A DNA stretch of 59,821 nucleotides. Origin: Thermoanaerobaculia bacterium. Its GTDB lineage: Bacteria > Acidobacteriota > Thermoanaerobaculia > Gp7-AA8. Position 1 is the stretch's first letter; every line of letters starts with the position of its first letter. Below are positions 378-24,168 of the stretch, one piece after another. The notes under the pieces were generated by a model, which ran no database searches, was not told the DNA's origin, and worked only from the letters and a program-made list of their open reading frames with translations. The stretch covers positions 1 through 59,821 of the forward strand of contig DASWBH010000020.1 in the NCBI GenBank assembly GCA_036390755.1, read 5' to 3'. The translations under genes and the position numbers were made by a program.

Positions 378-910
378 TCGATGAGCTTCTGCCCTTCGAT
401 CGCGCGAGGCTCCTCCCCTTCTTCCGGCGGCAGGCCCGTGTAGCGCGGCTTGTCGTCCCAGTATTCGAGCTCCTGCATATTGAAGTAGAGATCGTTGCGA
501 TCGTACGTCGCGAGCTCGTACGTCTTCGACGTCAGCCAGATCGACTTCGGCTTTGTCGGGCACGCCTCTTCGCAGAGCGCGCAGAACATGCATCGCTTGA
601 CGTCGATGTCATAGCGGTCCAGCACCTTCATCTTTTTCTGCTTGCCGTCGACGTCGCGCATCTCGTCGTGGACGTCGATGTAGATGATGTCGATCGGGCA
701 CGCCACCGCGCAGAGCTTGCACGCGATGCAGCGGTCATACGAGAAGCGGAACATTCCGCGGAAACGGTCCGCGGGTTCCATCCGCTCTTCCGGATAACGG
801 ATCGTCACCTTCGGCTTGAACAGCTCCTTGAACGTCGTCTTCAGACCTTCGAGGAGGTCGAGCAGAAGGAAGCGGTCGGTCCAGCTAGACTTCGGATACT
901 CGACTTGCAT
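371..910 (-). CDS. nuoI: NADH-quinone oxidoreductase subunit I
   Basis: TIRYPEE motif; two 4Fe-4S motifs CIACKLCAVACP and CMFCALCEEACP; start moved to MQVEYPK at 910. Confidence 0.95.
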   Translation of the reverse strand: MQVEYPKSSWTDRFLLLDLLEGLKTTFKELFKPKVTIRYPEERMEPADRFRGMFRFSYDRCIACKLCAVACPIDIIYIDVHDEMRDVDGKQKKMKVLDRYDIDVKRCMFCALCEEACPTKPKSIWLTSKTYELATYDRNDLYFNMQELEYWDDKPRYTGLPPEEGEEPRAIEGQKLIEG

Positions 911-3160: not shown

Positions 3161-3169
3161 AGGTACCGG

Positions 3170-5208: not shown

Positions 5209-5558
5209 GTGAGGACCTTCCTCTTCCAGGCGTAGAAGTAACCGATCAGGAGAATCGCAAGAAAGATTGCCATCTCGACAGCTCCGAACCAGCCGAGCTG
5301 CCTGAACCGGATCGCCCACGGGAAGAGGAACACCGTCTCCACATCGAACACGATGAACAGAACCGCGATGAGGAAGTACCGCACGGAGAAACGATGGTCG
5401 AACGCCAGCGACGTCGCCGGCACACCGCATTCGTACGGCTCGAGCTTGACCTTGTTCGCGCGCGAGGCGCGAATCAGAGGAGTGATGATGAAAAGCGTGA
5501 GAACCGGTACGGAAATGACGATGAGGAAAGCAATTGGAATGACTGAATAGTTCGCCAT
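5199..5558 (-). CDS. nuoA: NADH-quinone oxidoreductase subunit A
   Basis: [34 protein letters not shown]. Confidence 0.96.
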
Positions 5559-5588
5559 GCAAAGGGCCGTGGGGCCGAGACCGCCGGT

Positions 5589-5616
5589 ATTGTAAACGCG
5601 AGGGCTCCGGAGTCAA
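5589..5616 (-). promoter_or_regulatory. sigma70-type promoter of the nuo operon, TTGACT-N16-TACAAT
   Basis: Read on the minus strand 31 nt upstream of the nuoA start. Confidence 0.7.
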
Positions 5617-5621
5617 TTGCG

Positions 5622-6707
5622 TCAGTAGAGTTTCCGCTGGAACGTCCACCCGTCCCGCGGAACGGCGCGGGCCTGCACGAGGACCCGGATGTCCTCTCCG
5701 ATCCCATCGGGCAAAATCAGCCGGCGAGCGTTTTCCTTCTGATGCAAACCTTCGACGGAGTCGGGCTGACCCTGAATCAGCCGATGTTCGGCTGCGCCGA
5801 GCGCGAGGAGAAACTTCGCCTGGCGGTCGAAGAAGAGAGTGTGAAACGCCGCTTGCTCGCCCGCCCGGATCAGATCGGTGAAGTTGATATGCGCAGTGAT
5901 GTCCTGCTCGCCCGGTGACGCGAGCAGGTCCCGCGTCACCCGCTGCGCGTGGTACGACGCCGCCGTTCCGAACCTTCGAATGCGGCTGCTGAAGAGCTGC
6001 TCCTGCGGAAAACCGTAGTCGAACGTGACGATCAGCCCACGGCGCACGAAGGCGCAGAGGTCGCGGTAGTACGCCTCCCATTCGAGCGAGATATCGGCGA
6101 ATTGACCGTCGCTCAACGCGATTCGGCGCGCCGAGAAGTAATCCTCGTACGCACCGGGCGCCTCATGCTCGGTCCAGTCGAGCTCGCCGTCTCGATCGGT
6201 GACCCACAGCTCGTGCAGGTGCTCGTCGCGCTGAACGAGTCGCGCGAACGGCAGCGCGTCAAACAGCTCGTTCGCCAGGACGAGATGCGCGCCATCCCGG
6301 GGCACCTCCTCAATCGTTCGCACAAAGTGAAGCGCCGCATTCGATTGCGCTTCAGGCGAGAGTCGCTCGAGCGAACGGTCAACGCCATAGAACCGAACCG
6401 AGGACCGAGGACCGAGGACCGAGGACAATGAGAGGAGGAGCGAACCGTCGCCGCAGCCGACGTCCACGACCGTGGACACCACGTCGCCTGCGCGGCTCGA
6501 AAGATCGCGGATGAGGACGCTCAGACTATCGGCGAATAGCGGGCTGAGGCGCGGGGAGGTGACGTAATCAGCTTCAGGCCGCGCCCGCTTCGCGTAATAG
6601 CCGAAATCGGGATGATAGAGGGCCAGCTCGACGAAGTCGCGGAACGGTAAGTCATTGTCGCGGAGCAGGTTGTGAATGACAGCGGCCAGCGGTCCCGACC
6701 CGGGCAT
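5622..6707 (-). CDS. SAM-dependent methyltransferase, MidA/NDUFAF7 (DUF185) family
   Basis: [62 protein letters not shown]. Confidence 0.9.
6397..6424. repeat. (ACCGAGG)x4 heptamer array inside the methyltransferase CDS
   Basis: Four perfect tandem units; encode [10 protein letters not shown] on the minus strand. Confidence 0.9.
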
Positions 6708-6780
6708 CGCTGCATCTTACACGCGCTGTGACCCCGGCCGTCCCGGCTGAGGCGGCTTGCGCGACAGTTATTTCGAACCG

Positions 6781-6795
6781 TGGCATTTCTGTTGC
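6781..6795 (+). promoter_or_regulatory. Putative sigma54 promoter TGGCATTTCTGTTGC
   Basis: GG-N10-GC spacing correct; 60 nt upstream of the OmpA gene start; overlaps inverted repeat CTGTTGC-GAT-GCAACAG. Confidence 0.6.
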
Positions 6796-6854
6796 GATGC
6801 AACAGGTAGTCGAGCGGGCGCAAAGGGGCTTCCGCTACGGTTCAGGGAGGAAAC

Positions 6855-7505
6855 ATGAAGCAGTTCATCGCAGCAATTCTCGCCATCATGCTCGTCGCTC
6901 CGGCGGCGTTCGCACAGACGGTCGACGACCACGCCAAAGCGAAGCGCGGCGCGGCAATCGGCGGAGTCGCCGGCGCCATCGTCGGCGGCGTTCTCGGCAA
7001 CAACCGCGGAAAGGGCAACGGAACGCGCGGTGCCGTCATCGGCGGCGCCGTTGGCGTAGCGACCGGCGCGATCGTCGGCGCGATGATGGACAAGCAGGAG
7101 CGCGAGCTCCGGCAGATCGAAGGCGTCAACGTGCAGCGCGTCGGCAACGACGAGCTGAAGGTCACGGTCAAGAACGAAGTGCTCTTCGACTTCAACTCCG
7201 CTGCTCTGCGCAGTGCGTCGCGTGACTCGCTCACCCAGATGGCCGATGTGTTCCAGAAATATCCCGACACGACGATCAACGTTGAGGGTCACACGGACTC
7301 GATCGGCTCCGCGTCGTACAACCAGCGCCTCTCCGAGCGTCGCGCCGAATCGGTCGCCCGCTACCTCGAGAACCTCGGCGTCCGCAGTTCGCGCATCAAC
7401 GCGATCGGCTACGGTAAGTCGCAGCCGCGCGCGTCCAACAGCACGGCCAACGGCCGCCAGCTCAACCGGCGCGTGGAGATTCACGTCAAGGCCAACGCCG
7501 CGTAA
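6855..7505 (+). CDS. OmpA-family protein with glycine zipper (YiaD-like), SPI-type signal
   Basis: GAAIGGVAGAIVGG zipper; EGHTDSIGSASYNQRLSERRA and GRQLNRRVEI motifs; RBS GGAGG. Confidence 0.93.
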   Translation: MKQFIAAILAIMLVAPAAFAQTVDDHAKAKRGAAIGGVAGAIVGGVLGNNRGKGNGTRGAVIGGAVGVATGAIVGAMMDKQERELRQIEGVNVQRVGNDELKVTVKNEVLFDFNSAALRSASRDSLTQMADVFQKYPDTTINVEGHTDSIGSASYNQRLSERRAESVARYLENLGVRSSRINAIGYGKSQPRASNSTANGRQLNRRVEIHVKANAA

Positions 7506-7531
7506 TGCGATAGGTACTGATCGTGAATGAG

Positions 7532-7566
7532 AAAGGGACGCTCGGCGACGAGCGTCTTTTTCTTTT
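7532..7566 (+). terminator. Rho-independent terminator between the two OmpA genes
   Basis: GACGCTCG-GCGA-CGAGCGTC followed by TTTTTCTTTT. Confidence 0.8.
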
Positions 7567-7578
7567 CTGGAGGACGTG

Positions 7579-8229
7579 ATGATCCGTAAAGCATCTGTCG
7601 TACTCGTGGCAACCTTGCTCGTGATGGCCTGCTCCAGCACCAAGGACGATCCGAACGAGAAGGCCAAGCGCGGAGCCGGCATCGGGGCGGCCGCCGGTGC
7701 CGTGGCCGGAGCGGTGATCGGCAATCAATCGGGAAACAACCGGACCGGCGCAGTGGCCGGCGCGGCGGTGGGTGCCGCCGTCGGTGCGGCGATCGGCCAT
7801 CGCATGGACAAGCAGGAGCAGGAGCTCCGCCAGATTCAGGGCGTCGAAGTGACGCGTCCGTCCCAGGGTGAGATCGACGTACGCCTCACGAGCGACATCC
7901 TTTTCGATGTCGACTCGGCGGCGTTGCGTCCCGAATCGCGAACGACGCTTCGCGAGCTCGCGACCAACTTCCAGCGATATCCGGACGAATTGGTCGACGT
8001 CGAGGGACACACCGACTCGACCGGCACGACCGAGCACAATCAGGGCCTGTCGGAGCGCCGCGCCGGCTCCGTTCGCGACTATCTGGTCGATCAGGGGGTC
8101 GCCGCGCGGGACATCACCGCTGTCGGGTACGGTGAAACCCGGCCGAAGGCGTCGAACTCGACGCCGGAAGGGCGGCAGCTCAACCGCCGCGTGGAGATTC
8201 ACATTCGCGCGAATCCAACTGCAAGTTAG
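7579..8229 (+). CDS. OmpA-family lipoprotein with glycine zipper (YiaD-like)
   Basis: Lipobox LVMA-C; EGHTDSTG...NQGLSERRA; GRQLNRRVEI. Confidence 0.93.
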   Translation: MIRKASVVLVATLLVMACSSTKDDPNEKAKRGAGIGAAAGAVAGAVIGNQSGNNRTGAVAGAAVGAAVGAAIGHRMDKQEQELRQIQGVEVTRPSQGEIDVRLTSDILFDVDSAALRPESRTTLRELATNFQRYPDELVDVEGHTDSTGTTEHNQGLSERRAGSVRDYLVDQGVAARDITAVGYGETRPKASNSTPEGRQLNRRVEIHIRANPTAS

Positions 8230-8268
8230 CGTGTAACGATCACGGCGCGCGCCGCGTCATACTCTCGC

Positions 8269-9507
8269 ATGATGCGGCGCGCGCTGGCCTTGGTCCTTCT
8301 CCTCCCGGCCTGTGTCTCGTCGCCGCCGGCGGATCCGCGCGTCGACGATCAGGCCCGCATCACCATCGAGAGCCTGCGCAATACCATCGCTGCGAATCCG
8401 GACGACGGCGCCCGCATCTACGTCCTGGCGCAATATCTCGATCAGACCGGCGACACCACCGAAGCAATGCAGTGGCTGCGCGAGCTCGAGCGTCTTCACT
8501 GGCGGCACGGCGTCAACGATCACGACTTTCGCCACAGCGTCCCGCTTCACGAATACCGGACGATTCGCAATAGGCTGAACGCAGCCGAGCCGCACGTCGT
8601 CGCGAGCACGAAAGCGTTCACGATCCCGCAGCCGGATCTCGTCCCGGAAGGCATCGCCTGGGATGCGGCGACGGGAGACTTCTACGTGAGCAGCATCCAT
8701 CTGCGAAAGATCGTTCGCGTGTCGCGCGACGGAAAGTCGGCCGACTTCGTGCGTCAGGCGGAGGACGGAATCTTCGCGACGCTGGGCATGAAGGTCGACG
8801 CGCAGCGCCGGCTGCTGTGGGTCGCATCGAACGCGACTGAAGAGATGGCCGGCTACTCCCCGGCCGTCGACGGCCAATCGGCTCTGCTCGCGTACGATCT
8901 GCGCACGGGTCGCCTGGCGACGAAAGTCACGTTCGGCAGCGCGACCGAGCCGTCACTGCTCAACGATCTGGTCGTGCTCGACGACGGGTCGGTACTGATC
9001 ACCGACAGCGACGGCGGCGGCATCATGCGCGTGCGCCTCGGATCCGAGTCGATCGAACCGTGGATCCCGCCGCGCACGTTCCTGTTCCCGAACGGCATCG
9101 CGCGCACCGAGGGAGAGCCGTTCGTCTATGTTGCGGACTTCAACGGAGTATCGCGCGTCGACGTTCGCAGCCGCACGGTGACACCGGTCCGCGTGCCGGA
9201 GCCCGAGACACTCAGCGGCATCGACGGCCTGTACTGGTATCGCGGTGCGCTCATCGGAATTCAGAACGGCGTCGGCCGCGCGCGGGTGATCCGCATGAGT
9301 CTGGACGAGCCGCGCGAGTCGATCACGTCGATCGATGTCCTCGAGGAAGGCAACCCGCAATTCGACGAGCCGACGACCGGTGCGATCGCGGACGGCGCCT
9401 TTTTCTTTCTGGCGAACCCGCAACTGCGCTCGTTCGATGCGGACCACCGCATCTGGCCGCAGTCGCGTCTCCATGACGTCATCGTGCTGCGGTTGCAGCT
9501 CGACTGA
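8269..9507 (+). CDS. Lipoprotein with TPR-like N-terminus and SMP-30/gluconolactonase-like beta-propeller
   Basis: LLPA-C lipobox; PEGIAWD, LNDLVV, PNGIA, GIDGLYW, PTTGAI propeller motifs. Confidence 0.75.
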   Translation: MMRRALALVLLLPACVSSPPADPRVDDQARITIESLRNTIAANPDDGARIYVLAQYLDQTGDTTEAMQWLRELERLHWRHGVNDHDFRHSVPLHEYRTIRNRLNAAEPHVVASTKAFTIPQPDLVPEGIAWDAATGDFYVSSIHLRKIVRVSRDGKSADFVRQAEDGIFATLGMKVDAQRRLLWVASNATEEMAGYSPAVDGQSALLAYDLRTGRLATKVTFGSATEPSLLNDLVVLDDGSVLITDSDGGGIMRVRLGSESIEPWIPPRTFLFPNGIARTEGEPFVYVADFNGVSRVDVRSRTVTPVRVPEPETLSGIDGLYWYRGALIGIQNGVGRARVIRMSLDEPRESITSIDVLEEGNPQFDEPTTGAIADGAFFFLANPQLRSFDADHRIWPQSRLHDVIVLRLQLD

Positions 9508-9597
9508 CAAAGCCGGCTGAATCGGCTAGAATCCGCCCGCCCTTTCGGGTGCCGGGATGCGATTCGGCGCCCTTTCAGCACAATCAACGGAGGCACC

Positions 9598-12117
9598 ATG
9601 AAGCCCTGGATCATGCGCGCGCTGCTGCTCGCGATCGTTACGGTTCTCGCGACCGGCACCGTCGCGATGGCGCAGGAGTCTCACCCCGCGGCGAACCCCG
9701 CTGTCGCTCCGAACGAGTCCCAGCCGGCAGCGCATCCGACCGAAGCACGGAGCGAAGCGAGCCTGGTGCTGCCGGATTTGCGGAGCGTGTCGTTTCTCGG
9801 CATCAGCGGCCAGGCCCTCCTCACGGCCGGTCTCTTCATCTGCTTCCTCGGACTCGTGTTCGGTCTCGTCATCTACACCCAGCTCAAGAACCTCGCCGTG
9901 CATCGCTCGATGCTCGAGATCTCCGAGCTGATTTACGAGACCTGCAAGACGTACCTGATCACTCAGGGCAAGTTCATCCTGCTGCTGGAAGTCTTCATCG
10001 GCACGATCATGGTCGTTTACTTCGGCTTCCTGCGGCACTTCGAGCCGCTGCGCGTCGTCATCATCCTTCTCTTCAGCCTCATCGGCATCGGCGGCAGCTA
10101 CGGCGTGGCGTGGTTCGGCATCCGGATCAACACCTTCGCAAACTCGCGCACCGCCTTCGCGTCGCTGCGCGGCAAACCGTATCCGACCTACTCGATCCCG
10201 CTGAAAGCCGGCATGTCCATCGGCATGCTCCTGATCTCGACCGAGCTCGTGATCATGCTCTGCATCCTGCTGTGGGTGCCGCGCGATTACGCCGGACCGT
10301 GCTTCATCGGCTTCGCCATCGGCGAGTCGCTCGGCGCGGCCGCGCTGCGCATCGCCGGCGGCATCTTCACGAAGATCGCCGACATCGGCTCCGACCTCAT
10401 GAAGATCGTCTTCAACATCAAGGAAGACGACGCGCGCAACCCCGGCGTCATCGCCGATTGCACGGGTGACAATGCCGGCGACTCGGTCGGACCGACCGCC
10501 GACGGTTTCGAAACCTATGGCGTGACCGGCGTCGCGCTCATCACGTTCATCCTCCTCGCGGTGACCTCGCCGGGGGTGCAGACGCAGCTCCTCGTCTGGA
10601 TCTTCGCCATGCGCGTCATCATGATCATCACCGCCGGGCTGTCGTACTTCATCAACCAGGCCTTCGCCGGCGCGCGCTACGGCAACGCCGACTCGTTCAA
10701 CTTCGAAGCGCCGCTGACCACGCTGGTGTGGCTGACGTCGATGATCTCGATCGCCCTCACGTACGCGATCTCGTACGTGCTGATTCCGATCGTCGGCGGC
10801 GATCCGACGATGTGGTGGAAGCTGTCGACGATCATCACCTGCGGCACGCTGGCAGGCGCGATCATCCCCGAGCTCGTGAAGGTCTTCACCTCGACCGAGT
10901 CGCGTCACGTTCAGGAAGTCGTGACGGCGTCGCGTGAAGGCGGCGCATCGCTGAACATCCTGGCGGGCTTCATCGCCGGAAACTTCAGCGCCTATTGGAT
11001 GGGCCTCACCATCACCGTTCTGATGGGCGTTGCGGCGTGGATCAGCAGCCAATTCCCGACCGGCGCAGGAGCGCTGATGATCGCTCCGGCCGTCTTCTCC
11101 TTCGGTCTCGTCGCGTTCGGATTCCTCGGCATGGGGCCGGTGACGATCGCAGTCGACTCGTATGGTCCGGTCACCGACAACGCGCAGTCGGTCTTCGAGC
11201 TTTCCACCATCGAGACGCTCCCCGGAATCGAGGAGGAGATCCAGCGCGACTTCGGTTTTCGCCCGCAGTTCGAGCGCGGCAAGCAGTTCCTCGAGGAGAA
11301 CGACGGCGCCGGCAACACGTTCAAGGCCACGGCCAAGCCCGTGCTCATCGGCACAGCCGTCGTCGGCGCAACGACGATGATCTTCTCCATCATCGTCATC
11401 CTGACCAAGGGCCTCACGGTCGACATGGACAAGCTCTCGATCCTCCACCCGCAATTCCTCCTCGGACTCATCATGGGTGGTGCGGTGATCTACTGGTTCA
11501 CCGGCGCGGCCACGCAGGCCGTATCGACGGGCGCCTATCGCGCGGTCGAGTTCATCAAAGCGAATATCCATCTCGAATCCGGCGCGACGAAAGCTTCGGT
11601 CGAAGATTCGAAGAAAGTCGTCGAGATCTGTACGCAGTACGCGCAGAAGGGCATGCTCAACATCTTCCTGACCATATTCTTCTCGACGCTCGCCTTCGCC
11701 TGTTTCGAGCCATTCTTCTTCATCGGCTACCTGATCTCGATCGCGCTGTTCGGCCTCTACCAGGCGATTTTCATGGCCAACGCCGGCGGCGCGTGGGACA
11801 ACGCCAAGAAGATCGTCGAGGTCGAGCTGAAGGAGAAGGGTTCCGCGCTTCACGCTGCGACGATCGTCGGCGACACGGTCGGCGATCCGTTCAAAGACAC
11901 GTCGTCGGTGGCGATGAACCCGGTCATCAAGTTCACAACGCTGTTCGGACTGCTCGCCGTCGAGTTGGCGGTCGAGATGACGAAAGCCGGACAAGAAGGG
12001 CTTACTCGCATTCTGTCGGCGATTTTCCTGGCAATCGCGCTCGTGTTCGTCTATCGGTCGTTCTACGCAATGCGCATTCAAAGCGAGGAGCCCCAGCGCA
12101 AACCAGTCGTCGCTTAG
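9598..12117 (+). CDS. hppA: Membrane-bound pyrophosphatase, K+-independent type, probably H+-pumping
   Basis: GGIFTKIADIGSDLMK, EDDARNPGVIAD, GNTFKA (Lys at the Ala/Lys determinant), NAGGAWDNAKK, GDTVGDPFKDT. Confidence 0.95.
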   Translation: MKPWIMRALLLAIVTVLATGTVAMAQESHPAANPAVAPNESQPAAHPTEARSEASLVLPDLRSVSFLGISGQALLTAGLFICFLGLVFGLVIYTQLKNLAVHRSMLEISELIYETCKTYLITQGKFILLLEVFIGTIMVVYFGFLRHFEPLRVVIILLFSLIGIGGSYGVAWFGIRINTFANSRTAFASLRGKPYPTYSIPLKAGMSIGMLLISTELVIMLCILLWVPRDYAGPCFIGFAIGESLGAAALRIAGGIFTKIADIGSDLMKIVFNIKEDDARNPGVIADCTGDNAGDSVGPTADGFETYGVTGVALITFILLAVTSPGVQTQLLVWIFAMRVIMIITAGLSYFINQAFAGARYGNADSFNFEAPLTTLVWLTSMISIALTYAISYVLIPIVGGDPTMWWKLSTIITCGTLAGAIIPELVKVFTSTESRHVQEVVTASREGGASLNILAGFIAGNFSAYWMGLTITVLMGVAAWISSQFPTGAGALMIAPAVFSFGLVAFGFLGMGPVTIAVDSYGPVTDNAQSVFELSTIETLPGIEEEIQRDFGFRPQFERGKQFLEENDGAGNTFKATAKPVLIGTAVVGATTMIFSIIVILTKGLTVDMDKLSILHPQFLLGLIMGGAVIYWFTGAATQAVSTGAYRAVEFIKANIHLESGATKASVEDSKKVVEICTQYAQKGMLNIFLTIFFSTLAFACFEPFFFIGYLISIALFGLYQAIFMANAGGAWDNAKKIVEVELKEKGSALHAATIVGDTVGDPFKDTSSVAMNPVIKFTTLFGLLAVELAVEMTKAGQEGLTRILSAIFLAIALVFVYRSFYAMRIQSEEPQRKPVVA

Positions 12118-15469: not shown

Positions 15470-16900
15470 ATGGCCGATCGATTCGATGTCGTAGTCGTCG
15501 GCGGCGGCACAGCCGGCCTCGTCACCGCATCCGGCTGCGCGCGCCTCGGCCGGGCGGTCGCGCTGATCGAGAAAGAAGAGCTGGGCGGCGACTGCCTCTG
15601 GACCGGCTGCGTGCCGACGAAAGCGCTCGTCGCAAGCGCCAGGCTCGCTCACCAGATGCGCAACGCCAGCGCGTACGGACTCGAAACTCACGAGCCGAAG
15701 ATCGCGCCGGCGGCGATCATGGACTCGATGCGCGAAGCGCGTCTCGTTGCTTCGAAGAACGACGATCCAGAGAAGTTCCGCAAGCTCGGCGTCGAAGTCA
15801 TCAAAGGAAAGGCCCGGCTAGTCTCGCGCAGCCAGGTCGATGTCGACGGACGGCGATTGACCGGGAAGGACATCGTGATCGCCACCGGCTCGCGCACCTC
15901 CGTGCCGCCGATCCAGGGGCTCGCCGAGACCGGATTCATCGATCACGTCTCCTTCCTGCAGCGCAACGACTTCCCTTCTTCGCTCCTGATCCTCGGCGGC
16001 GGCTACATCGGAGTCGAATTCGCGCAGATCTTCCGCCGCTTCGGCTGCGACGTGACGGTCATCGAAATGGCCAGCGAGATCGTGAACAAGGAGGACCGCG
16101 AAGTCATCGCGCGCGTCCACGAGATCCTCACAAGCGAAGGCATCGAGATCCGTACCGGCTGGGCAGTGAAGTCGGTCCGGCGGGACGGCGGCAGGAAAGT
16201 CGCGGTCATCGAGAACAAGAACGGCGAGAGCCGCGAAGTCGCAGCAGCCGAGGTATTCGTCGCGTCAGGACGACGCGGAAACATTGAGAACCTCGGGCTG
16301 GAAGAAGCCGGAGTGAAGACGGACCGCACGTATGTCGTCGTCGACAAATATCTTCAGACCTCCGTTCCGCGCATCTGGGCGTGTGGCGACGTTCATGGCG
16401 CGCTGCAATTCACGCATGTCGCGGCATACGAAGCGGTGAAACTCGTGCGCAACATGCTCTTCCCGGGCCGCTCAGCCGTCGATTACAACGACGTGCCCTG
16501 GGCGCTGTTCACGGATCCTGAAGTCGGCCACATCGGGATGACCGAACAGCAGGCGATCGACGCGCTCGGAGCAGAGGGCGTCCGCGCGTACTGCGTCGAG
16601 ATGGAGGATGTCGATCGCGCCGTCGTCGATCGCGCGACCGCCGGCTTCGTCAAGATCGTTTGCGACCGCAAAGGCGCCATCCTCGGCGCGCATGTGATGG
16701 CATCGAACGCGTCGACGCTGATCGAAGAGATCGTGCTGGCGCGCAGAAAGGGCATTCGCGTCCAGACGCTCGCCCAGCTCGTCTCGCCGTATCCGTCGAT
16801 GGCCGACGCGATCCAGAAAGCGGCTGCGATGCACTACCAGCAGCTCGGCGAAAGCTGGATCGGAAGAGTGGGAAAGCGCATTGCTGCGCTTTCCCAGTAG
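15470..16900 (+). CDS. Pyridine nucleotide-disulfide oxidoreductase, class I (DLD/MerA-like, no C-terminal Cys pair)
   Basis: GGGTAG, GGDCLWTGCVPTK, GGGYIGVE, WACGDV, FTDPEVGHIG. Confidence 0.9.
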   Translation: MADRFDVVVVGGGTAGLVTASGCARLGRAVALIEKEELGGDCLWTGCVPTKALVASARLAHQMRNASAYGLETHEPKIAPAAIMDSMREARLVASKNDDPEKFRKLGVEVIKGKARLVSRSQVDVDGRRLTGKDIVIATGSRTSVPPIQGLAETGFIDHVSFLQRNDFPSSLLILGGGYIGVEFAQIFRRFGCDVTVIEMASEIVNKEDREVIARVHEILTSEGIEIRTGWAVKSVRRDGGRKVAVIENKNGESREVAAAEVFVASGRRGNIENLGLEEAGVKTDRTYVVVDKYLQTSVPRIWACGDVHGALQFTHVAAYEAVKLVRNMLFPGRSAVDYNDVPWALFTDPEVGHIGMTEQQAIDALGAEGVRAYCVEMEDVDRAVVDRATAGFVKIVCDRKGAILGAHVMASNASTLIEEIVLARRKGIRVQTLAQLVSPYPSMADAIQKAAAMHYQQLGESWIGRVGKRIAALSQ

Positions 16901-16904: not shown

Positions 16905-19229
16905 TTACCAGCGATACGTTCCCGTGATATAGAACGCGCCGCCGTTGTACCCGAGGTCGTTCGGAGCGAGGAAGAATCCGCCGGGGAGGTACTGCTGTGT
17001 GCCGGTGTTGAGCAGATCCTTCAGCGTGTACTTCTCGTACCAGGCTCCGACGGTGACGTTCCAGGTCGTCGTGAGCGTGTAGGTCGCCTCGGCGAGCAGA
17101 CTGCCGAGGCGCGTGTCGTCGACGTTCGGGATCGAGAACGCGCCTTTCGTGATGCCGTTGGGATCGGCGCTGAGAGCGGCGAAACCGTGCACGCGCTGCG
17201 TTCTGCCGGTGACCCGGAAATCGAGCTTGTCGGGGATGATGCCGACCGTGAAGCCGAGTCCGACCGCATCGGCTTTGTCGCTGTTGTCGGCCGTCCAGTT
17301 GTCGCGCGGATCGGTCGAAGGCGTCGCGCCGCTCTGCCGCCCGACCTGCAGACCGTCCCAGAGCTCATGGCTGTAGAACGCGAACGTGCTCCAGCGCTGC
17401 GCCGGCGAATAGTCCGCCTCGGCGGTGAACGTCTGATTGCGCCACTTCTGCAGACCGAGGTCGGAATGGTTGTAGTTGTCGAAGTAGCGCGTGTAGTTCA
17501 ACGTGACGTCGAACGGGCCATTGAACGGATTCATGTTCAGGATGCTGATGATCCGGTTCGACTTGCGCTCGGCGACATCGAAACGGCGCAGGCCCTCCGG
17601 CAACACCGTCGGCTGCGGCTGCTGGAACGTCGCATCCTCGGCGCGCTCGACGTCGTAACCGTCGATGGAGCGATTGCCGAATTCGAAGCTGTTGCGCCAG
17701 GTGAGCCACGTCGAAGGCCGTGCGTCGAGCGCGATGTGGGCGATGTTCTCGGTCGTGCGATTCACTTCGCGGAAATTCCGGTTCATCCGCTCGTTGCGCA
17801 GTCCCCCTTCGACGGAGAACTTCGTCCCGATGTCGTAGTTCGCGAGGACCTCCGCGCGGTTGTTCTTGTAGCTGTATGGAACGGTGATGCGCGGGATCGG
17901 CTCCCAGACGGCGTCGAAACGGACGTACCCGGGGAAGTCGATGCGCGGTGAGCGGTTGTCGTTGTCGTAGAAACGGTAACGTGCCGTCAGGCTGAAATTC
18001 TTGACGGGCCGGCTCGTGAAGTTCACGAATGCTGACGTCGTGTTGATCCTGCCGTCGAAGCTGTTCACCGGCAGATGATTCGTGTCCGGCACCGTCGCGA
18101 GGATCGCGGTGTTCGTCGTGTACGGCATCAGGTCGTTGCTCGACCGAAGCTGGCCGAAGCTGAGATCCGCGGTGAGACGCGAATTCATCGGCAGCTTGTA
18201 GATGCCGCCGATCGCGGCGCTCAACCGGCTGTTATCCGGCGGCAGAGCGAGCCGGCCGGTCGCCGCGCCGCCGACCGATCCTGTTCCGGGCCCGGTGTAC
18301 GCGTTCGGGTCCGTCGAGTCGGTCACGCGGAACGGGTTGTCGAACGTGTAGCTCTCGAAGTGGTTGTTGAACTGATTGATCGAGAGCGTTCCGCGCAACA
18401 TCAGATTCGTCGCGACGGGCACTTCCATGCGCGCGCCCACTTCGCGCGTGCGGAAGTCGATGGGCTCAGGCGTTTCGACGACGTTGCCGAACCCGAACGA
18501 TGTTCCGGCGCTTCGCGTGCCGCTGCGGTTCTCCTGAAAGTAGCTGATGGTCGTGTTGACCGGTGCGTCCGGAAAGAGCTGCAGAGAGAGGAAGGCGCGG
18601 TTCCGCTGGAAGCCGAGGTCGAACACTTCGGGCGTGTTGATGAGAGGCTCGACGAGGCTTCTCAGAAGTGGAAATCCGAGCGAGCGCTGGTTGGCCGTGA
18701 CCGCGTTCTGCAGCGAAGCCTGAATGAAGTCGGAAATGCCGAGTGCGTCGCGGCCGACGACTTTCTCAGGCGACTTGGCGTTGTCGCCGAGGCGGTGCGG
18801 GATCTGGTCGTAAAGAGCATCGATCCGCAGCGTGCCGGTGTCGGTCCAGACGGAGAAGCGGCGATCGCGCGAAGTGATGTTCTCACCGGAGACGAGGAAC
18901 GGACTTCCCTTCGTGTCGCTGAAGACGCGGAAGGCCGGTCCGCTGATGCCGCTCGGCACGTCGCGGTATTCGATGAATTTCGATGAGCGGCCGGAGTCCT
19001 GATTCGCGTCCTGCAGTCCGGCGTTGATGAAGTTGCCGAAGAGATTGGGAACGTAGGCCGGCGCGGGCGGCGCGACTTCGGTCTTTTCAGAGCCCTGGCC
19101 GGCGGGAGGCTGCGTCGTTGGCGGCGGCGTCTGGGAAGTTCCGGTCGATGCAGGTTGTGAGGACGACTGCGCGAGCAGCGGCAAGGCGAGCATCAAGGCG
19201 ACGATCGTGATCGTAGTCTGTCGTTTCAT
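16905..19229 (-). CDS. mtrB: MtrB/PioB-family outer-membrane porin
   Basis: 774 aa; SSKFIEYRD, YDQIPH, EPIDF, ALPPDNS, RRFDVAER; directly downstream of the decaheme cytochrome. Confidence 0.88.
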   Translation of the reverse strand: MKRQTTITIVALMLALPLLAQSSSQPASTGTSQTPPPTTQPPAGQGSEKTEVAPPAPAYVPNLFGNFINAGLQDANQDSGRSSKFIEYRDVPSGISGPAFRVFSDTKGSPFLVSGENITSRDRRFSVWTDTGTLRIDALYDQIPHRLGDNAKSPEKVVGRDALGISDFIQASLQNAVTANQRSLGFPLLRSLVEPLINTPEVFDLGFQRNRAFLSLQLFPDAPVNTTISYFQENRSGTRSAGTSFGFGNVVETPEPIDFRTREVGARMEVPVATNLMLRGTLSINQFNNHFESYTFDNPFRVTDSTDPNAYTGPGTGSVGGAATGRLALPPDNSRLSAAIGGIYKLPMNSRLTADLSFGQLRSSNDLMPYTTNTAILATVPDTNHLPVNSFDGRINTTSAFVNFTSRPVKNFSLTARYRFYDNDNRSPRIDFPGYVRFDAVWEPIPRITVPYSYKNNRAEVLANYDIGTKFSVEGGLRNERMNRNFREVNRTTENIAHIALDARPSTWLTWRNSFEFGNRSIDGYDVERAEDATFQQPQPTVLPEGLRRFDVAERKSNRIISILNMNPFNGPFDVTLNYTRYFDNYNHSDLGLQKWRNQTFTAEADYSPAQRWSTFAFYSHELWDGLQVGRQSGATPSTDPRDNWTADNSDKADAVGLGFTVGIIPDKLDFRVTGRTQRVHGFAALSADPNGITKGAFSIPNVDDTRLGSLLAEATYTLTTTWNVTVGAWYEKYTLKDLLNTGTQQYLPGGFFLAPNDLGYNGGAFYITGTYRW

Positions 19230-19244
19230 GTTCGTCCTCCTTCC

Positions 19245-20207
19245 TCACCGCCCGAAGTACGGGCCTGACGGCGCATTCGTGCCGTGAACGTTGTTGTGGC
19301 AGTTGCGGCAGCCGTGCTCGATCGCGCGGTTGCTCGTATTCGAGCCGACTGTCGTGTTGCGCAGGTCGTACAGCGATCCGGGATGTCGCGTGCTGAGATG
19401 GCAGCGCTGGCAGAGCCACGGCAGTTTCGCCACGAGAAGGCGCTCGTGATTCGAGCCGTGCGGGGTATGGCAGTTCGTGCAGTTTTCGCGGACCGGCGAA
19501 TGCTCCCAGAGGAACGGTCCGCGCTTGTCGGTGTGGCAGGTGTAGCAAAGGTCGTTGATCGACTCGGCCTTCAACAGACCGCGCTGGGCGTTCGAATGCG
19601 GATCGTGGCAGCTCCCGCAATCGAGCTTCCCTTCGCGCACGGGATGGTGGCTCTGACGCATTCCCTGCGCGCGAACCTGCGGATGGCAGTTGTAGCAGGT
19701 CTCGGCGGCACGCGGAGTCTTGAGCTGCGCACGCTGTGACTGGAAGGCGTGAATGCTGTGGCAGGTGGTGCAGGAGAGGCCGCGCCGCTCGTGCACGCCG
19801 CCGTGGAAGTTCGCCTGGCGGCCGCGATCGTGACAGCTCATGCACTTCGCGTTGACCTGATCCGCCGCCATCGTCTTCATCGAGATGACGGGACCTCGTC
19901 CCTCGCCGGCGAGCTCCATCCGCGCGTGCGTCGCGACATCGCCGTGACACTCGGCGCAACTGCGCGCGATCTTCCTGGCGTGATACGTGTGCTGGAAATT
20001 CGTGAACAGCGTGTCCGCATGACAGGCCTGACACTCGGCGATGTCGAATCCCGGTCCGGATGCCGCGGGCGCTTCCGCTGTCGTTTTCGCACCGGGAGGA
20101 GGTGCGGGTGGTGATGCAGTCGATGTTGCAGGGGGAGTCTGCGCGCCGGCACTGAAGGTCAGGGCCACGAACGCGAGGGCAACGAACCACGGGAACGACT
20201 TGGTCAT
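19245..20207 (-). CDS. mtrA: Decaheme cytochrome c, MtrA/DmsE/PioA family
   Basis: Ten CxxCH counted (CQACH, CAECH, CMSCH, CTTCH, CYNCH, CGSCH, CYTCH, CTNCH, CQRCH, CRNCH); GPFLWEH, HGSNH, HGTN; signal peptide from MTKSFPW. Confidence 0.93.
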   Translation of the reverse strand: MTKSFPWFVALAFVALTFSAGAQTPPATSTASPPAPPPGAKTTAEAPAASGPGFDIAECQACHADTLFTNFQHTYHARKIARSCAECHGDVATHARMELAGEGRGPVISMKTMAADQVNAKCMSCHDRGRQANFHGGVHERRGLSCTTCHSIHAFQSQRAQLKTPRAAETCYNCHPQVRAQGMRQSHHPVREGKLDCGSCHDPHSNAQRGLLKAESINDLCYTCHTDKRGPFLWEHSPVRENCTNCHTPHGSNHERLLVAKLPWLCQRCHLSTRHPGSLYDLRNTTVGSNTSNRAIEHGCRNCHNNVHGTNAPSGPYFGR

Positions 20208-20314
20208 ACGCGCTCCTTTGCTCGACGAGGGACGTTCCGTTGCGGTGATATGGTAACTGGCGAAGCGAACTTGAGTCAGCAAAGACGTATAGCGTTCTTG
20301 AGAGGAGATTCGAG

Positions 20315-20845
20315 ATGAAGCGAATGTTCACAATGCTGCCGGCGCTCGTCTTCGCGCTCGCGTGCGCACACACGAAGAGCGGCCCGATGGCGATGGCGAT
20401 GCTCACGCCGATCAGCGGATCGACTGCAAAAGGAATGGTGCACTTCCAGGAGCTTGCCGACGGAAGCGTCGACGTGACCGCCGACCTGCAGCGCGTTCCG
20501 CCCGGCGTTCACGGCTTCCACGTGCACGACAAAGGTGATTGCAGCGACAACGGCAACGCCGCCGGCGGCCACTTCAACCCGATGAACATGCAGCACGCCG
20601 GACCAGACGCGCAGTCACACCACGCCGGTGATTTCGGCAACGTGACCGCCGACGCGAACGGCGAAGTTCACGCGCAGTTCAACACGCGTGCGATCACGGT
20701 GGGACCCGGACCGCTGTCGGTCGTCGGCCGCTCGATCGTGCTGCACGCGAACCCGGACGACCTGACGACGCAGCCGAGCGGAAACTCCGGACCACGGATC
20801 TCCTGCGGGATCATCACGGCGATGGCAGGTGAGATGCACCACTAG
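20315..20845 (+). CDS. sodC: Cu/Zn superoxide dismutase, lipoprotein
   Basis: HGFHVH, AGGHFNP, HAGDFGN, VLHANPDD, GPRISCG; lipobox ALA-C. Confidence 0.95.
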   Translation: MKRMFTMLPALVFALACAHTKSGPMAMAMLTPISGSTAKGMVHFQELADGSVDVTADLQRVPPGVHGFHVHDKGDCSDNGNAAGGHFNPMNMQHAGPDAQSHHAGDFGNVTADANGEVHAQFNTRAITVGPGPLSVVGRSIVLHANPDDLTTQPSGNSGPRISCGIITAMAGEMHH

Positions 20846-20850: not shown

Positions 20851-21321
20851 ATGCGCGCCAGGTTTCTTCTTCTCGCCCTCATCGTCACAGCATGCGCCGG
20901 AGGCCGCGGCAGCGTCGGGAACACGGCGCTGCCCGGTCACGGCGCGATCACGATCGCGATCAATCCGAATCCCGTCGTCGCAACGCGCGTCAGCGGAAGC
21001 ACGTACGACTTCCCCTTCGAAGTCGTCGTGCGCGAAACGGGCGGACACCCTGTCGAGGTCACCTCTGTCTCCGCCACCGTCTTCGCCCTCGGCGGCATTC
21101 AGATCGCGTCGGAGAGCTACGACGCCGCGAGGATCGCGCAGCTCGGCTACTCGACGCATCTGCCGGCGAACGGCGAGGTGCGGTACCGCTTCAATCCGCG
21201 GCGCGACGTCACGGACGAACGGCTGTTCAGCGGCGTGTCGGCCGACGTTCGCGTCGACGGACACGACGACAGCGGCGCGCCGACGACGGCCGGCACGCGG
21301 GTGACCGTGACTCGCGGTTGA
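20851..21321 (+). CDS. Hypothetical lipoprotein, beta-rich
   Basis: Lipobox VTA-C; normal codon pattern; same strand as sodC with 5-nt gap. Confidence 0.65.
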   Translation: MRARFLLLALIVTACAGGRGSVGNTALPGHGAITIAINPNPVVATRVSGSTYDFPFEVVVRETGGHPVEVTSVSATVFALGGIQIASESYDAARIAQLGYSTHLPANGEVRYRFNPRRDVTDERLFSGVSADVRVDGHDDSGAPTTAGTRVTVTRG

Positions 21322-21329: not shown

Positions 21330-21791
21330 TTACAGCAGGCCGTAGTCGCGCATGCGGCGCCAGAGCGTGGCGCGGCTGATGCCGAGCGAGCGCGCGGCTG
21401 CGCTGCGGCGCCAGCGGTGCTCTTCGAGCGCGTGACGGATCCGCTCGAAGTCGTCGCTGTCGCCGTTCCGGCTGCCGTTCTCACGGAGCTGCACGGTGAG
21501 CGCGTATCGCACCGGCGCCTCGAAGACGCCTTCCGGCAAACGAGCGGCGGTAATGTCGACTGCGGCTGCGGAGCTGACCACTTCGCAGTGGCCGCCGCAG
21601 CGTTCGCCGGCGCGCAACTTGTCGGCGATCGGTGTCAGGTCGATGAAGTCGGACATGTGGTGCTGGTCGACGTCCGCCGTTCCGACGAGACCCCTGAATG
21701 CGGGCGACGCTTCGACAATTTGTAAATCGTCATCGAGGAGAGCGACGGCGTGGCCGAGGGACTCGAATGTTGCACTGACGGCTGAGAACAT
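21330..21791 (-). CDS. PAS-like domain plus Fis-type HTH protein, no AAA+ domain
   Basis: VALLDDDLQIVEAS PAS-like N-terminus; RIRHALEEHRWRRSAAARSLGISRATLWRRM HTH. Confidence 0.75.
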   Translation of the reverse strand: MFSAVSATFESLGHAVALLDDDLQIVEASPAFRGLVGTADVDQHHMSDFIDLTPIADKLRAGERCGGHCEVVSSAAAVDITAARLPEGVFEAPVRYALTVQLRENGSRNGDSDDFERIRHALEEHRWRRSAAARSLGISRATLWRRMRDYGLL

Positions 21792-21837
21792 AGCGCGCCT
21801 CACAGGTGCGACACTGCCGTGCAAGGTGTCGCTGGGC

Positions 21838-21853
21838 AGTGACTGCGGTCACC
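21838..21853. promoter_or_regulatory. CRP-like box AGTGA-CTGCGG-TCACC
   Basis: 8/10 match with GTGA-N6-TCAC core intact; upstream of the PAS-Fis gene. Confidence 0.45.
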
Positions 21854-21862
21854 CGTCGACGT

Positions 21863-22546
21863 TCACGCCGCCAGAATCCTGCGAAGCCCGGCTGGGTCCG
21901 GGATGCGAAATCCACTCTTTTCGGTGAGTACGATCGCGTCTTTCTGCCACCGGCTCATGAGGCGGATCGCGGTCTCCAGCGTGGTTCCGATCAGGTCCGC
22001 GATCTCCTGCCTCGAGAGCGGGAGCGGGATGATGACCTCGCTCCCCTTGGACAATCCGACGCGATCGGCGAGCGTCATGAACAGCCGCGCCGCGCGCTGC
22101 TCGGCCGATCCGGTCATGTCGGCGAGGCGCTTGTTCACCATCATCAAGCGGTAGGTCAGGCCCGCGAGCAGGGGCCGCATCATCTCCGGCCGGCGCTCCA
22201 GAAGCGCAAAGAACTCGCGCTCCGGGATCGAGACGATGCTGCTCGGCTCGAGCGTGATCGCGCTCGCCGGGAACGGGCGCTGCTCGAAAACGGCCACCGC
22301 GCCGACCGGCTCGCCGGGTCCCAGGAGCTCGATGATGACGTCGCGGTCGCCGGCGGACTTCACGACTTTGACGCGGCCGAGGTAAACGAAATAGATCCGG
22401 TCGGCCGGCTCGCCTTCGCGAAAGATTGCGTCGCCTTTGTCGTAGCCGTGGATCCGGCACAGCGGCGCGACGGCGTCGCGATCACTCTTCCGTAGCGACG
22501 CAAGCAGCGGAATCGAGTCGAACGGAATCGTCGCTTCGATCGCCAT
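21863..22546 (-). CDS. Crp/Fnr-family regulator (DNR/NnrR-like)
   Basis: cNMP-like domain (IFREGEPA...GRVKV...GEPVG); HTH LSRQEIADLIGTTLETAIRLMS. Confidence 0.9.
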   Translation of the reverse strand: MAIEATIPFDSIPLLASLRKSDRDAVAPLCRIHGYDKGDAIFREGEPADRIYFVYLGRVKVVKSAGDRDVIIELLGPGEPVGAVAVFEQRPFPASAITLEPSSIVSIPEREFFALLERRPEMMRPLLAGLTYRLMMVNKRLADMTGSAEQRAARLFMTLADRVGLSKGSEVIIPLPLSRQEIADLIGTTLETAIRLMSRWQKDAIVLTEKSGFRIPDPAGLRRILAA

Positions 22547-22562
22547 CCAGGTGACAGATCCT

Positions 22563-22576
22563 ATGACAAAAGTCAT
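22563..22576. promoter_or_regulatory. FNR/DNR-like palindrome ATGAC-AAAA-GTCAT between the divergent regulator and ric
   Basis: Perfect 5-4-5 palindrome in the 79-nt intergenic region. Confidence 0.65.
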
Positions 22577-22625
22577 GTTCGCGCCGGTGCCCGCTCCGCA
22601 GAATGAATCTCGGAGGAACACAGCA

Positions 22626-23393
22626 ATGGAAGCGAACGTGAAGAACACGACGGTCGGAAAGCTCGCTCTCGATCAGCCGACGGCGATTGCAGTTTTCGAG
22701 AAGTGGCATATCGATTACTGCTGCCGCGGCAACCGCACCCTGGCGCAGGCTTGCGACGAGGCGGGCATCGCGATCGACGAGGTCGTCGCCGCGATCGGAC
22801 CGTCGCGCACGAACGCCCCAACTTCGGAGCTGCGGCGAAAGAACCTCACCGAGCTGCAGAAGTACATCGTCGCGACGCATCACCTCTTCACGCGCGAGGC
22901 ACTCGAGACGGTCGGCATGCTCTCCGAGAAAGTCGCCACGCGTCACGGCGCAAACCACGCCGAGACGACGGAAGTGCGCACGATCGTGGCGCAGCTCGTG
23001 GCGGATCTCCTCCCGCACATGCTGAAGGAAGAGCAGGTCATCTTCCCCTACGTCGAAGCGCTCGAAAAAGCATCGCGGAACGGCCAGTCCGCGCCGGTAC
23101 CATTCTTCGGGACGGTGAAGAATCCGATTCGCATGATGATGATGGAGCACGACGCGGTCGGCGTTCTTCTCGCCGATCTGCGCGTCGTAACGTCCAACTA
23201 CACGCTTCCCTCCGATGCGTGCCTCAGCTTCCGCGCGCTGTACGAGCGGCTGGCCGAGCTCGAAGAAGACCTGCACCGGCACATTCACCTCGAGAACAAC
23301 CTCCTTTTCCCGCGCGCCGCGGAGCTGGAGGAAACAGCCGGGTCGTCTCCCGCTTTCGAGGTCAAAGGTGAGCACTGCTCCTGCACAGGATAG
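22626..23393 (+). CDS. ric: Iron-sulfur cluster repair di-iron protein (Ric/YtfE/ScdA)
   Basis: IDYCCRG, HHLFTRE, HMLKEEQVIFP, PIRMMMMEHD, HIHLENNLLFP. Confidence 0.95.
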   Translation: MEANVKNTTVGKLALDQPTAIAVFEKWHIDYCCRGNRTLAQACDEAGIAIDEVVAAIGPSRTNAPTSELRRKNLTELQKYIVATHHLFTREALETVGMLSEKVATRHGANHAETTEVRTIVAQLVADLLPHMLKEEQVIFPYVEALEKASRNGQSAPVPFFGTVKNPIRMMMMEHDAVGVLLADLRVVTSNYTLPSDACLSFRALYERLAELEEDLHRHIHLENNLLFPRAAELEETAGSSPAFEVKGEHCSCTG

Positions 23394-24168
23394 GATCGTC
23401 GCGGCGCCGCGGCCGGCACTCCGGCCGCTGGCGCTGCCGAACGAGCACGGCGGCTGGGGTTTTCTGCTCGAGCCGCTCCTGCTGGGACTCCTGGTCGCGC
23501 CGTCGATCGGCGGTGCGTTCATCGGCATCGCGGCCCTCTTCGGATTCCTCACACGCCAGCCGCTGAAGTACGCGCTTCAGGACGCGTTGCGCGGCAAGTC
23601 GTATGCGCGGACGCCGTGGTGCTGGATGTTCGCGGCGACATACGCGACCGTTGCCGCCGCGGCGTTTGCGGGTGCGATCCTCGTCAGCCGGATCGCGTTC
23701 GTGATTCCGTTCGGCCTCGTCGCGCCGCTCGCTGTCACGGTTGTTCTCTATGACGCGTACAACCGCAGCCGCTCGCTCTTTCCCGAGCTCATCGGCGCCG
23801 CGGCGATGTCGTCGACTGCCACGGCGATCGCAATCGCCGGCGGAATGCGGATGCTCCCGGCGTTCGCGCTATCCGGCATCATCCTCGCGCGTTCTCTTCC
23901 GTCGATCCTGTACGTTCGCACGCTGCTGCGCCGCGCACACCGACAGACCGCCGCGTCATGGCCGGCGCTCGTCGCCCAGGTCGCCGCGGCGATCGCCGTC
24001 GCTGCATTCGCGCCGCTGCTGGCTGTCGTGGCGATGGTGATTCTCATCGCGCGCGCGGCGTGGGGTCTCGCGCACGAGCCGCCGCGCGCGAAAACGATCG
24101 GCTGGTCGGAAGTCGCGATCGGAACGATCACGATCGTACTCGCCGCCGCCGGCTATCGATTCTTCTAG
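23368..24168 (+). CDS. YwiC-like membrane protein
   Basis: LPNEHGGWG motif, multiple TM helices, KTIGWSE; GTG start overlapping the ric 3' end. Confidence 0.8.
   Translation: MSTAPAQDRIVAAPRPALRPLALPNEHGGWGFLLEPLLLGLLVAPSIGGAFIGIAALFGFLTRQPLKYALQDALRGKSYARTPWCWMFAATYATVAAAAFAGAILVSRIAFVIPFGLVAPLAVTVVLYDAYNRSRSLFPELIGAAAMSSTATAIAIAGGMRMLPAFALSGIILARSLPSILYVRTLLRRAHRQTAASWPALVAQVAAAIAVAAFAPLLAVVAMVILIARAAWGLAHEPPRAKTIGWSEVAIGTITIVLAAAGYRFF

Follow-up and report, generated by a model that had tools for sequence, protein, structure and literature searches.

The 59.8-kb stretch of DNA analyzed here (the window) is one contig (C20) of a 4.18-Mb metagenome-assembled genome (G000; 503 contigs, 92.7% complete) from a soil member of the Acidobacteriota (Thermoanaerobaculia), and it carries a gene for a decahaem c-type cytochrome followed by a gene for an outer-membrane porin. 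A first-pass annotation had described the two as a decahaem-porin pair of the MtrAB/PioAB type, encoded in one operon and lacking both MtrC and a quinol dehydrogenase. The genes and the spacer between them (coordinates are those of the window; aa, amino acids) are as follows.

19245-20207 (-): mtrA-like gene of the DmsE/MtrA/MtoA/PioA family, encoding a 320-aa periplasmic/trans-outer-membrane decahaem c-type cytochrome
19230-19244 (-): 15-nt intercistronic spacer with the ribosome-binding site GGAAGGAGGA of the porin gene, read directly from the sequence
16905-19229 (-): mtrB-like gene of the MtrB/PioB family, encoding a 774-aa outer-membrane beta-barrel sheath

The decahaem cytochrome and its porin

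Fourteen matches to the nucleotide pattern TGY-N6-TGY-CAY, which corresponds to the CxxCH motif, are found on the two strands of the window, where about 2.2 are expected; none of 100 shuffles reached 14. Ten of these matches are in frame and cluster within 738 bp of the minus strand (19296-20033), placing CxxCH motifs at residues 59-300 of the 320-aa decahaem; the motif count and the gene coordinates of the first-pass annotation are exact. The remaining four are isolated, and no further multihaem gene is present within the window. All 20 cysteines of the cytochrome lie inside the ten motifs, and the 15 histidines outside of them are enough for ten distal ligands of putatively bis-histidine-ligated haems. 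An AAAGGAG ribosome-binding site precedes the gene, and the protein starts with a Sec-type signal (MTKSFPWFVALAFVALTFSAGAQ) that is followed by a Pro/Ala/Thr-rich linker of about 33 residues leading to the first haem.

The protein scores 227.5 bits against the NCBIfam model TIGR03508 for DmsE-family decahaem cytochromes (cut-off 192.2; profile positions 4-258 of 258), and close homologues carry the public annotation "DmsE family decaheme c-type cytochrome." Its best PDB match is 6r2q_A from the Mtr complex of Shewanella baltica (E 1.4e-51), and it shares 39% identity over 237 aa with S. baltica MtrA (6R2Q chain A). With a TIGR03508 score above the cut-off and 6r2q_A as the best PDB match, the cytochrome does not group with multihaem proteins outside of extracellular electron transfer (EET), an outcome that had been held out as contrary evidence to the initial assignment.

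The porin gene starts 15 nt past the stop codon of the cytochrome gene, and this short gap with its ribosome-binding site bears out the assignment of both genes to one operon. The decahaem gene was found immediately upstream of the porin gene in all relatives examined. The porin has the predicted length of 774 aa, a signal peptide, a disordered Pro/Thr-rich N-terminal linker of about 45 aa and the C-terminus ...GTYRW; it contains no cysteine anywhere. It matches the Pfam family PF11854 (MtrB_PioB) with 282.3 bits (cut-off 23) and the narrower model TIGR03509 with 214.9 bits, under the cut-off of 240.05, and it is hence a divergent member of its family. An N-terminal CXXC motif marks the MtrB proteins of metal-reducing Gammaproteobacteria; this motif is absent from the window's porin, as the protein is Cys-free. 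Close homologues are numerous in metagenomes and are named as MtrB/PioB family members by NCBI and the Joint Genome Institute (JGI).

An AlphaFold2 model built from 71 homologues (predicted local distance difference test score [pLDDT] 82, predicted template modeling [TM] score 0.77) depicts the porin as a barrel of about 26 strands, and the predicted protein thus has the strand number of MtrB, in which 26 antiparallel strands sheath MtrA (PMC7198977). In a Foldseek search with this model, the top match was 6r2q_B (E 4.7e-37, TM-scores 0.74/0.87, 18% identity in the structural alignment); the next matches were 22-strand TonB-dependent barrels with TM-scores of about 0.38/0.44. The PF11854 score and the Foldseek result place the porin in the beta-barrel family to which it had been assigned, and with TIGR03508, PF11854 and the best matches 6r2q_A and 6r2q_B, the same can be said for the MtrAB/PioAB-type pair as a whole. 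Collectively, these data identify the two genes as encoding an MtrAB-type outer-membrane electron conduit, in which the Sec-exported decahaem is predicted to be threaded through an insulating, MtrB-like barrel of about 26 strands.

The absence of a neighboring mtrC, cymA or mtoD gene was confirmed within the window, and no gene for a high-potential iron-sulfur protein (pioC) was found among the neighbors of the pair. Sequencing runs containing this stretch were DNA runs from soil and groundwater metagenomes; no RNA run matched.

The gene pair is a cassette inserted between a disulfide reductase gene and sodC

The immediate surroundings of the pair comprise the following features.

15470-16900 (+): class-I FAD/NAD(P) disulfide oxidoreductase (Pyr_redox_2 227 bits, and Pyr_redox_dim); left flank
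16869-16896 (no strand): perfect 12-bp inverted repeat with a 4-nt loop, within the final codons of the disulfide reductase gene and 8 nt away from the stop codon of the porin gene
20208-20314 (no strand): 107-nt divergent intergenic region between the mtrA-like gene and sodC; promoters presumed, none recognized
20315-20845 (+): sodC, periplasmic Cu/Zn superoxide dismutase (Sod_Cu 144 bits); right flank of the insertion site, outside of the operon

Both flanking genes are present as first described, but they do not belong to the operon; they are a conserved gene pair that is interrupted by the decahaem and porin genes. Relatives without the decahaem-porin pair have sodC right next to the disulfide reductase gene, with both genes in the same orientation and 10-50 bp between them. 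Such empty sites were found in five relatives (G001, G003, G009, G007, and G006), three of which are listed here.

G001, contig C661, 226-1653 / 1678-2196, co-directional: disulfide reductase gene / sodC
G009, contig C1, 109444-110859 / 110912-111409, co-directional: disulfide reductase gene / sodC
G003, contig C2, 103445-104646, co-directional: disulfide reductase gene / sodC

It follows from this adjacency that the decahaem-porin pair is a dispensable two-gene cassette of 3.4 kb, which lies in antisense orientation at a fixed position, flanked by the disulfide reductase gene and sodC. The position of these two genes next to the pair is an accident of the insertion site and therefore no evidence of a common operon.

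Ten of the 61 relatives have a pair of the window's type, and six of these are strong holders; the pair never adjoins mtrC, and in the relatives, MtrC and the pair are encoded on different contigs. The order disulfide reductase, porin, decahaem, sodC recurs in a congener (G005), in a member of another genus (G008) and in metagenomic contigs whose porins are 51-54% identical to that of the window. The outer flank recurs as well, with a small lipoprotein-like open reading frame (ORF), an HTH_8 protein, a Crp-family regulator, ScdA/RIC and YwiC. Disulfide reductases of G005, G001 and G008 are 75, 77, and 67% identical to that of the window, while the porins of G005 and G008 are 74 and 54% identical to the window's porin. 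The identities of flank and porin rank alike. The simplest history of the cassette would be an ancient insertion that was later cleanly lost several times; gain by recombination is a possible alternative. The cassette has no flanking direct or inverted repeats and no G+C anomaly, and we therefore rejected the idea of a recognizable transposon or a recent foreign insert.

The disulfide oxidoreductase contains the redox-active disulfide CLWTGC and scores 438 bits against NF004991, under the cut-off of that model. Its gene and the porin gene are convergent, with 4 nt between their stop codons. The 12-bp hairpin at 16869-16896 is absent from the empty site of G001 and may serve as a bidirectional transcription stop that was created or retained after the insertion. 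At the opposite end of the cassette, the 107-nt region between the mtrA-like gene and sodC lacks a sigma-70-like promoter as well as boxes for FNR, CRP or Fur (best matches 5/10, 6/10, and 8/19, respectively).

A 156-aa lipoprotein-like ORF with the lipobox LIVTAC and no family match (20851-21321 [+]) directly follows sodC, and an ORF of the same size is located at this position in two metagenomic loci (L060 and L066). Next to it, a run of genes resembling a stress island (21330-24168) is kept in the same order in these two loci; it encodes an HTH_8 protein, a Crp-family regulator without an FNR-type Cys cluster, the di-iron Fe-S repair protein ScdA/RIC, and a YwiC-like membrane protein that is named by its synteny with L060 and L066 only. 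Elsewhere in the window, nuoH, nuoD, nuoC, and nuoB-like genes for complex I are found at 885-6081 (-) in a Pfam check, the NuoB-like ORF being unusually long (636 aa), and an 839-aa membrane ORF at 9598-12117 (+) resembles an H+-pyrophosphatase by reading only.

Partner cytochromes and a second conduit are encoded elsewhere in the genome

The genome was searched for ORFs containing three or more CxxCH motifs, which yielded 15 multihaem proteins. The search for partner cytochromes that had been suggested for this locus returned candidates on other contigs, among them C289, C280, C137, and C360. The description of the pair as lacking MtrC and a quinol dehydrogenase is correct for the locus; it fails at the level of the genome, because an OmcA/MtrC-type protein (C289) and ImcH- and CbcL-like proteins (C280) are encoded on other contigs. 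The most relevant of these genes, and further cytochrome genes of the same genome, are listed below.

C289, 297-2417 (-): OmcA/MtrC-family decahaem, 707 aa (TIGR03507 444 bits, cut-off 209)
C280, 383-3977 (-): tandem ImcH-like and CbcL-like genes (L032), candidate menaquinol oxidases for EET
C269, 912-2282 (+): Cyc2-like fused monohaem cytochrome-porin, 456 aa, with a signal peptide and the Cyc2 family motif; no Pfam match
C112, 2146-5208 (+): 9-haem secreted protein, 1021 aa, with weak MtrC/MtrF domain matches
C434, 2481-4124 (+): large 9-haem secreted protein, cut by the contig end
C11, 11207-13135 (-): 11-haem protein, 551 aa, with a C-terminal transmembrane anchor

The C289 protein is the sole TIGR03507 match in the genome, and its best PDB matches are MtrF, OmcA and UndA. 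At its end, C289 shares exactly 141 nt with the start of C265, and the joined locus (C289:297-2417 [-] and C265:1-2828 [+]; L031, L030) contains an mtrC-like gene, a gene for a second DmsE-family decahaem (193 bits; 33% identical to the decahaem of the window), and a 641-aa outer-membrane ORF, referred to here as porin 2. PF11854 finds only the window's porin in this genome and does not match porin 2, and a BLASTP comparison of the two porins was not significant; in hhalign, their similarity was marginal (44%, E 2e-4). The AlphaFold model of porin 2 (pLDDT 80) predicts a barrel of about 26-28 strands, whose best PDB match is again 6r2q_B (E 3e-14, TM-score 0.65). The likeness of porin 2 to MtrB was thus revealed by the fold search alone.

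Among the 61 relatives, 28-30 have MtrC-family genes and 31 have porin 2, and in every case in which both could be placed on a single contig, the distance between them is about 1 kb. The mtrC-decahaem-porin cluster is hence the common conduit of the class Thermoanaerobaculia, and beside this class-wide cluster the pair of the window is a second, accessory conduit. The idea that the pair and MtrC strictly occur together in the relatives was considered and rejected.

The ImcH-like protein encoded on C280 has 517 aa, transmembrane-like segments at residues 36-54, 70-88, and 117-135, a CX3CH motif at 149 and CX2CH motifs at 174, 223, 333, 450, 470, and 508. By its architecture it fits the published definition of ImcH, which calls for 495-519 aa, three N-terminal transmembrane helices, a CX3CH motif beside the transmembrane region and six CX2CH motifs (PMC6295460). 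The contig ends 382 bp beyond this gene. The CbcL-like protein (676 aa) combines 11 haems with a cytochrome-b-like membrane domain and is of the CbcL/MtrH/MtoC type. Two small tetrahaem proteins of the c3/c7 type (C137 and C360) could serve as periplasmic carriers, and the large multihaem proteins encoded on C112, C434, and C11 are possible extracellular or periplasmic partners.

The Cyc2-like protein carries the sequence AIPAFARKY-ATS-CQTCH-VGF-PKL, which fits the pattern AXPXFAR[K][Y]...CxxCH...PxL, and ends in ...LRFAF; it is a candidate Fe(II) oxidase. The genome further encodes one haem-copper oxidase (COX1), NrfAH and alternative-complex-III-like cytochromes. No RuBisCO large subunit was found in it.

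ImcH-like genes adjoin the gene pair in relatives

In a midpoint-rooted tree of 71 porins with branch support from the Shimodaira-Hasegawa-like approximate likelihood ratio test, the window's porin falls into a clade of 22 members, and the gene contexts sampled there are either the sodC island or an adjacent gene for a tetrahaem c3 cytochrome. The sister clade (support 100) includes a JGI metagenome contig (L061) on which genes for an ImcH-like protein, the decahaem, MtrB and a tetrahaem c3 cytochrome form one tight operon (5612-10670) amid haem-biosynthesis genes; this ImcH-like protein is 64% identical to that encoded on C280. In the other half of the tree, an ImcH-like gene adjoins the pair in one clade, which comprises a congener (G002; L024) and L062. 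A PFOR gene lies less than 6 kb from the decahaem-porin pair in L062.

A survey of quinol oxidases from 2018 recorded no mtrAB or mtoAB genes adjacent to imcH (PMC6295460), and the ImcH-mtrAB operons of the relatives are a modest addition to this picture.

Proposed function and direction of electron flow

We consider it probable that the pair is an MtrAB-type accessory conduit that works outward and is fed by ImcH and CbcL through periplasmic tetrahaem cytochromes. Electrons from the menaquinol pool would enter the ImcH-like and/or CbcL-like inner-membrane cytochromes (C280), be carried through the periplasm by small tetrahaem c3/c7-type cytochromes (C137 and C360) to haem 1 of the decahaem, and leave at the cell surface toward soluble or chelated Fe(III)/Mn(IV), humics or shuttles. 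This last transfer might be direct, or it might involve the OmcA/MtrC-type decahaem, whose gene is unlinked, or further large multihaem proteins that are secreted.

As to the direction itself, we favor outward (reductive) flow only slightly, as the same wire could run inward. This preference derives from the linkage with ImcH in the sister clade, from the many OmcA/MtrC-type proteins, from the missing RuBisCO and from the physiology of Thermoanaerobaculum aquaticum, a cultivated member of the class that reduces Fe(III)/Mn(IV). Hints to the lifestyle within the window agree with the proposal: a putative PFOR gene (51853-55368 [-]), the genes for complex I, and the H+-pyrophosphatase-like ORF, the last by reading only.

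Several observations weigh against this proposal. The first-pass annotation had cautioned that direction cannot be read from sequence, and this caution was justified, since family members working in opposite directions share about 40% identity: MtoA has 39% identity to PioA and 42-44% to MtrA (PMC3274759), so that the 39% identity between the window's decahaem and MtrA is uninformative on direction. The two-gene layout is that of MtoAB and PioAB. In the genome, the ImcH/CbcL and MtrC genes are unlinked to the pair, MtrC being physically linked to the other decahaem and porin, and the pair and MtrC co-occur in four of the six strong holders, as compared with MtrC in about half of all genomes. 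Members of another clade in this other half of the porin tree (L063 and L064) carry genes for a monohaem cytochrome c and a 209-aa CymA-like NapC/NirT protein upstream in the operon, a layout that recalls mtoD and cymA of Sideroxydans. The haem-copper oxidase and the Cyc2-like cytochrome-porin make Fe(II) oxidation by the organism plausible. The label that FeGenie would give to such a pair, either "probable iron reduction" or "possible oxidation/reduction" (PMC7005843), is ambiguous for the same reasons.

These points bear on the main alternative, an inward conduit of the MtoAB/PioAB kind, whose electrons would come from Fe(II), dissolved or in minerals, or from a different extracellular donor and would pass via periplasmic cytochromes to the haem-copper oxidase or to nitrite reductase, for mixotrophic energy gain or Fe(II) detoxification. 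We regard such a function as possible, though clearly not the favored one. In addition to the missing adjacent mtrC, the MtoD- and CymA-like genes of L063 and L064, and the presence of COX1, NrfAH and the Cyc2-like protein, it would account for a porin that exceeds Shewanella MtrB in length, as MtoB and PioB do (PMC3274759). A Cys-free porin without an N-terminal CXXC would also suit an inward conduit. So would the adjacent sodC, as the chemistry of Fe(II) and O2 yields superoxide, but the insertion site, not a shared function, accounts for this adjacency. Inward flow is further disfavored by the richness of the genome in OmcA/MtrC-type outer cytochromes, by the operon linkage in the sister clade of ImcH-type genes, homologues of which have to date been reported only in Fe(III) reducers (PMC6295460), and by the failure to find the large subunit of RuBisCO, the only CO2-fixation route that the search covered.

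A more specific proposal holds that soil Thermoanaerobaculia possess an MtrAB wire without a dedicated surface cytochrome, fed by ImcH as a hybrid of a Geobacter-type inner and a Shewanella-type outer part, and gained or lost as a clean cassette at the reductase-sodC site, within a gene pair for oxidative stress in the periplasm. We consider it doubtful in this full form. In a stronger version, SodC may be functionally tied to the conduit, for instance by clearing superoxide that arises from leakage of haem electrons to O2.

It is quite improbable that the cassette acts as a redox-stress valve, which would bleed off excess periplasmic reducing power or reduce oxidants such as H2O2 at the cell surface with no respiration-linked growth. 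The insertion site is fixed and conserved down to porin identities of 51-54%, its neighbors include sodC, a Crp-family regulator and ScdA/RIC, and MtrCAB-dependent reduction of H2O2 has been reported (PMC9732548); vertical descent is, however, the simpler account of the conserved synteny, other clade members reside in unrelated contexts (haem biosynthesis, ccm genes, bc-type complexes), and no shared regulatory box was found. Least credible of all is a DmsEF-like conduit that serves a non-cytochrome terminal reductase or oxidase (e.g., a molybdoenzyme) in the extracellular space or outer leaflet and not metals, for although the best NCBIfam model of the decahaem carries the DmsE name and S. 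oneidensis has additional mtrAB-only operons of such a type (PMC7005843), neither the window nor any of the 12 related loci examined has a gene for a DmsAB-like or other reductase next to the pair, whose redox-active neighbors are always cytochromes.

Soils harbor Thermoanaerobaculia and other Acidobacteriota in abundance, and the availability of carbon and phosphate there is governed by the redox cycling of iron. A genome with two outer-membrane conduits, Geobacter-type inner-membrane oxidases and a Cyc2-like protein suggests that this lineage is likely to cycle iron in both directions. It also illustrates that calls made from a gene neighborhood ("MtrAB without MtrC means oxidiser") can mislead, as partner genes may be unlinked or a porin may be too divergent for Pfam. 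The pair of the window offers no new mechanism, and its homologues are already labeled as MtrB/PioB and DmsE family members in public annotation; the side findings that deserve attention are the Pfam-invisible porin of the second conduit, the clean empty sites, the ImcH-mtrAB operons of the relatives, and the Cyc2-like gene.

Comparison with known systems

The MtrAB core of the Shewanella MtrCAB complex (6R2Q; Edwards et al., 2020; PMC7198977) resembles the pair of the window in its decahaem of about 320 aa within a barrel of about 26 strands and in the gene order cytochrome then porin, and both window proteins have their best sequence and structure matches there. The pair differs from it in its acidobacterial host, in the lack of an adjacent mtrC and of CymA, and in sequence (39% identity for the cytochrome, 18% in the structural alignment for the porin). 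The window's porin is Cys-free, about 77 aa longer than Shewanella MtrB, and has a disordered Pro/Thr-rich N-terminus. A three-component MtrCAB cluster is thus not found at this locus, while an OmcA/MtrC-family gene is present elsewhere in the genome.

With the MtoAB(-MtoD-CymA) system of Sideroxydans lithotrophicus ES-1 and the PioAB(C) system of Rhodopseudomonas palustris TIE-1, the pair shares a two-gene decahaem/porin core and the lack of a gene for an extracellular cytochrome. MtoA is also close in size, with 317 aa and 14 extra histidines as compared with the 320 aa and 15 extra histidines of the window's decahaem. Unlike these systems, the pair has no adjacent mtoD, cymA or pioC gene; the decahaem lacks the N-terminal extension of about 200 aa found in PioA, and the host appears to be a heterotroph-like soil acidobacterium without RuBisCO. 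From DmsEFAB the pair is set apart by the absence of adjacent dmsAB-type genes, its neighbors being sodC and the disulfide reductase gene.

The nearest published precedent is the hybrid Mtr system of the Desulfobacterota (Desulfuromonas acetexigens and relatives; PMC12133095), in which mtrAB genes are clustered, mtrC is located elsewhere, and homologues of ImcH and CbcL replace CymA, combining a Geobacter-type inner with a Shewanella-type outer part. Those genes belong to another phylum and are expressed on anodes; in the genome described here, the unlinked mtrC sits in a second, complete mtrC-decahaem-porin cluster.

Within the same phylum, the Group 5 MtrCAB clusters of Acidobacteriia (Bryobacterales; Baker et al., 2022; PMC8805035) likewise have no adjacent gene for an inner-membrane quinol oxidase and often have an adjacent gene for a periplasmic tetrahaem cytochrome, as do members of the window's porin clade. 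They differ as three-gene mtrCAB clusters from the module of the window, which is without mtrC and belongs to the class Thermoanaerobaculia. In a phylum already known to possess such genes (PMC8805035; PMC10654088), the pair of the window adds one more ordinary member to the MtrAB/MtoAB/PioAB family.

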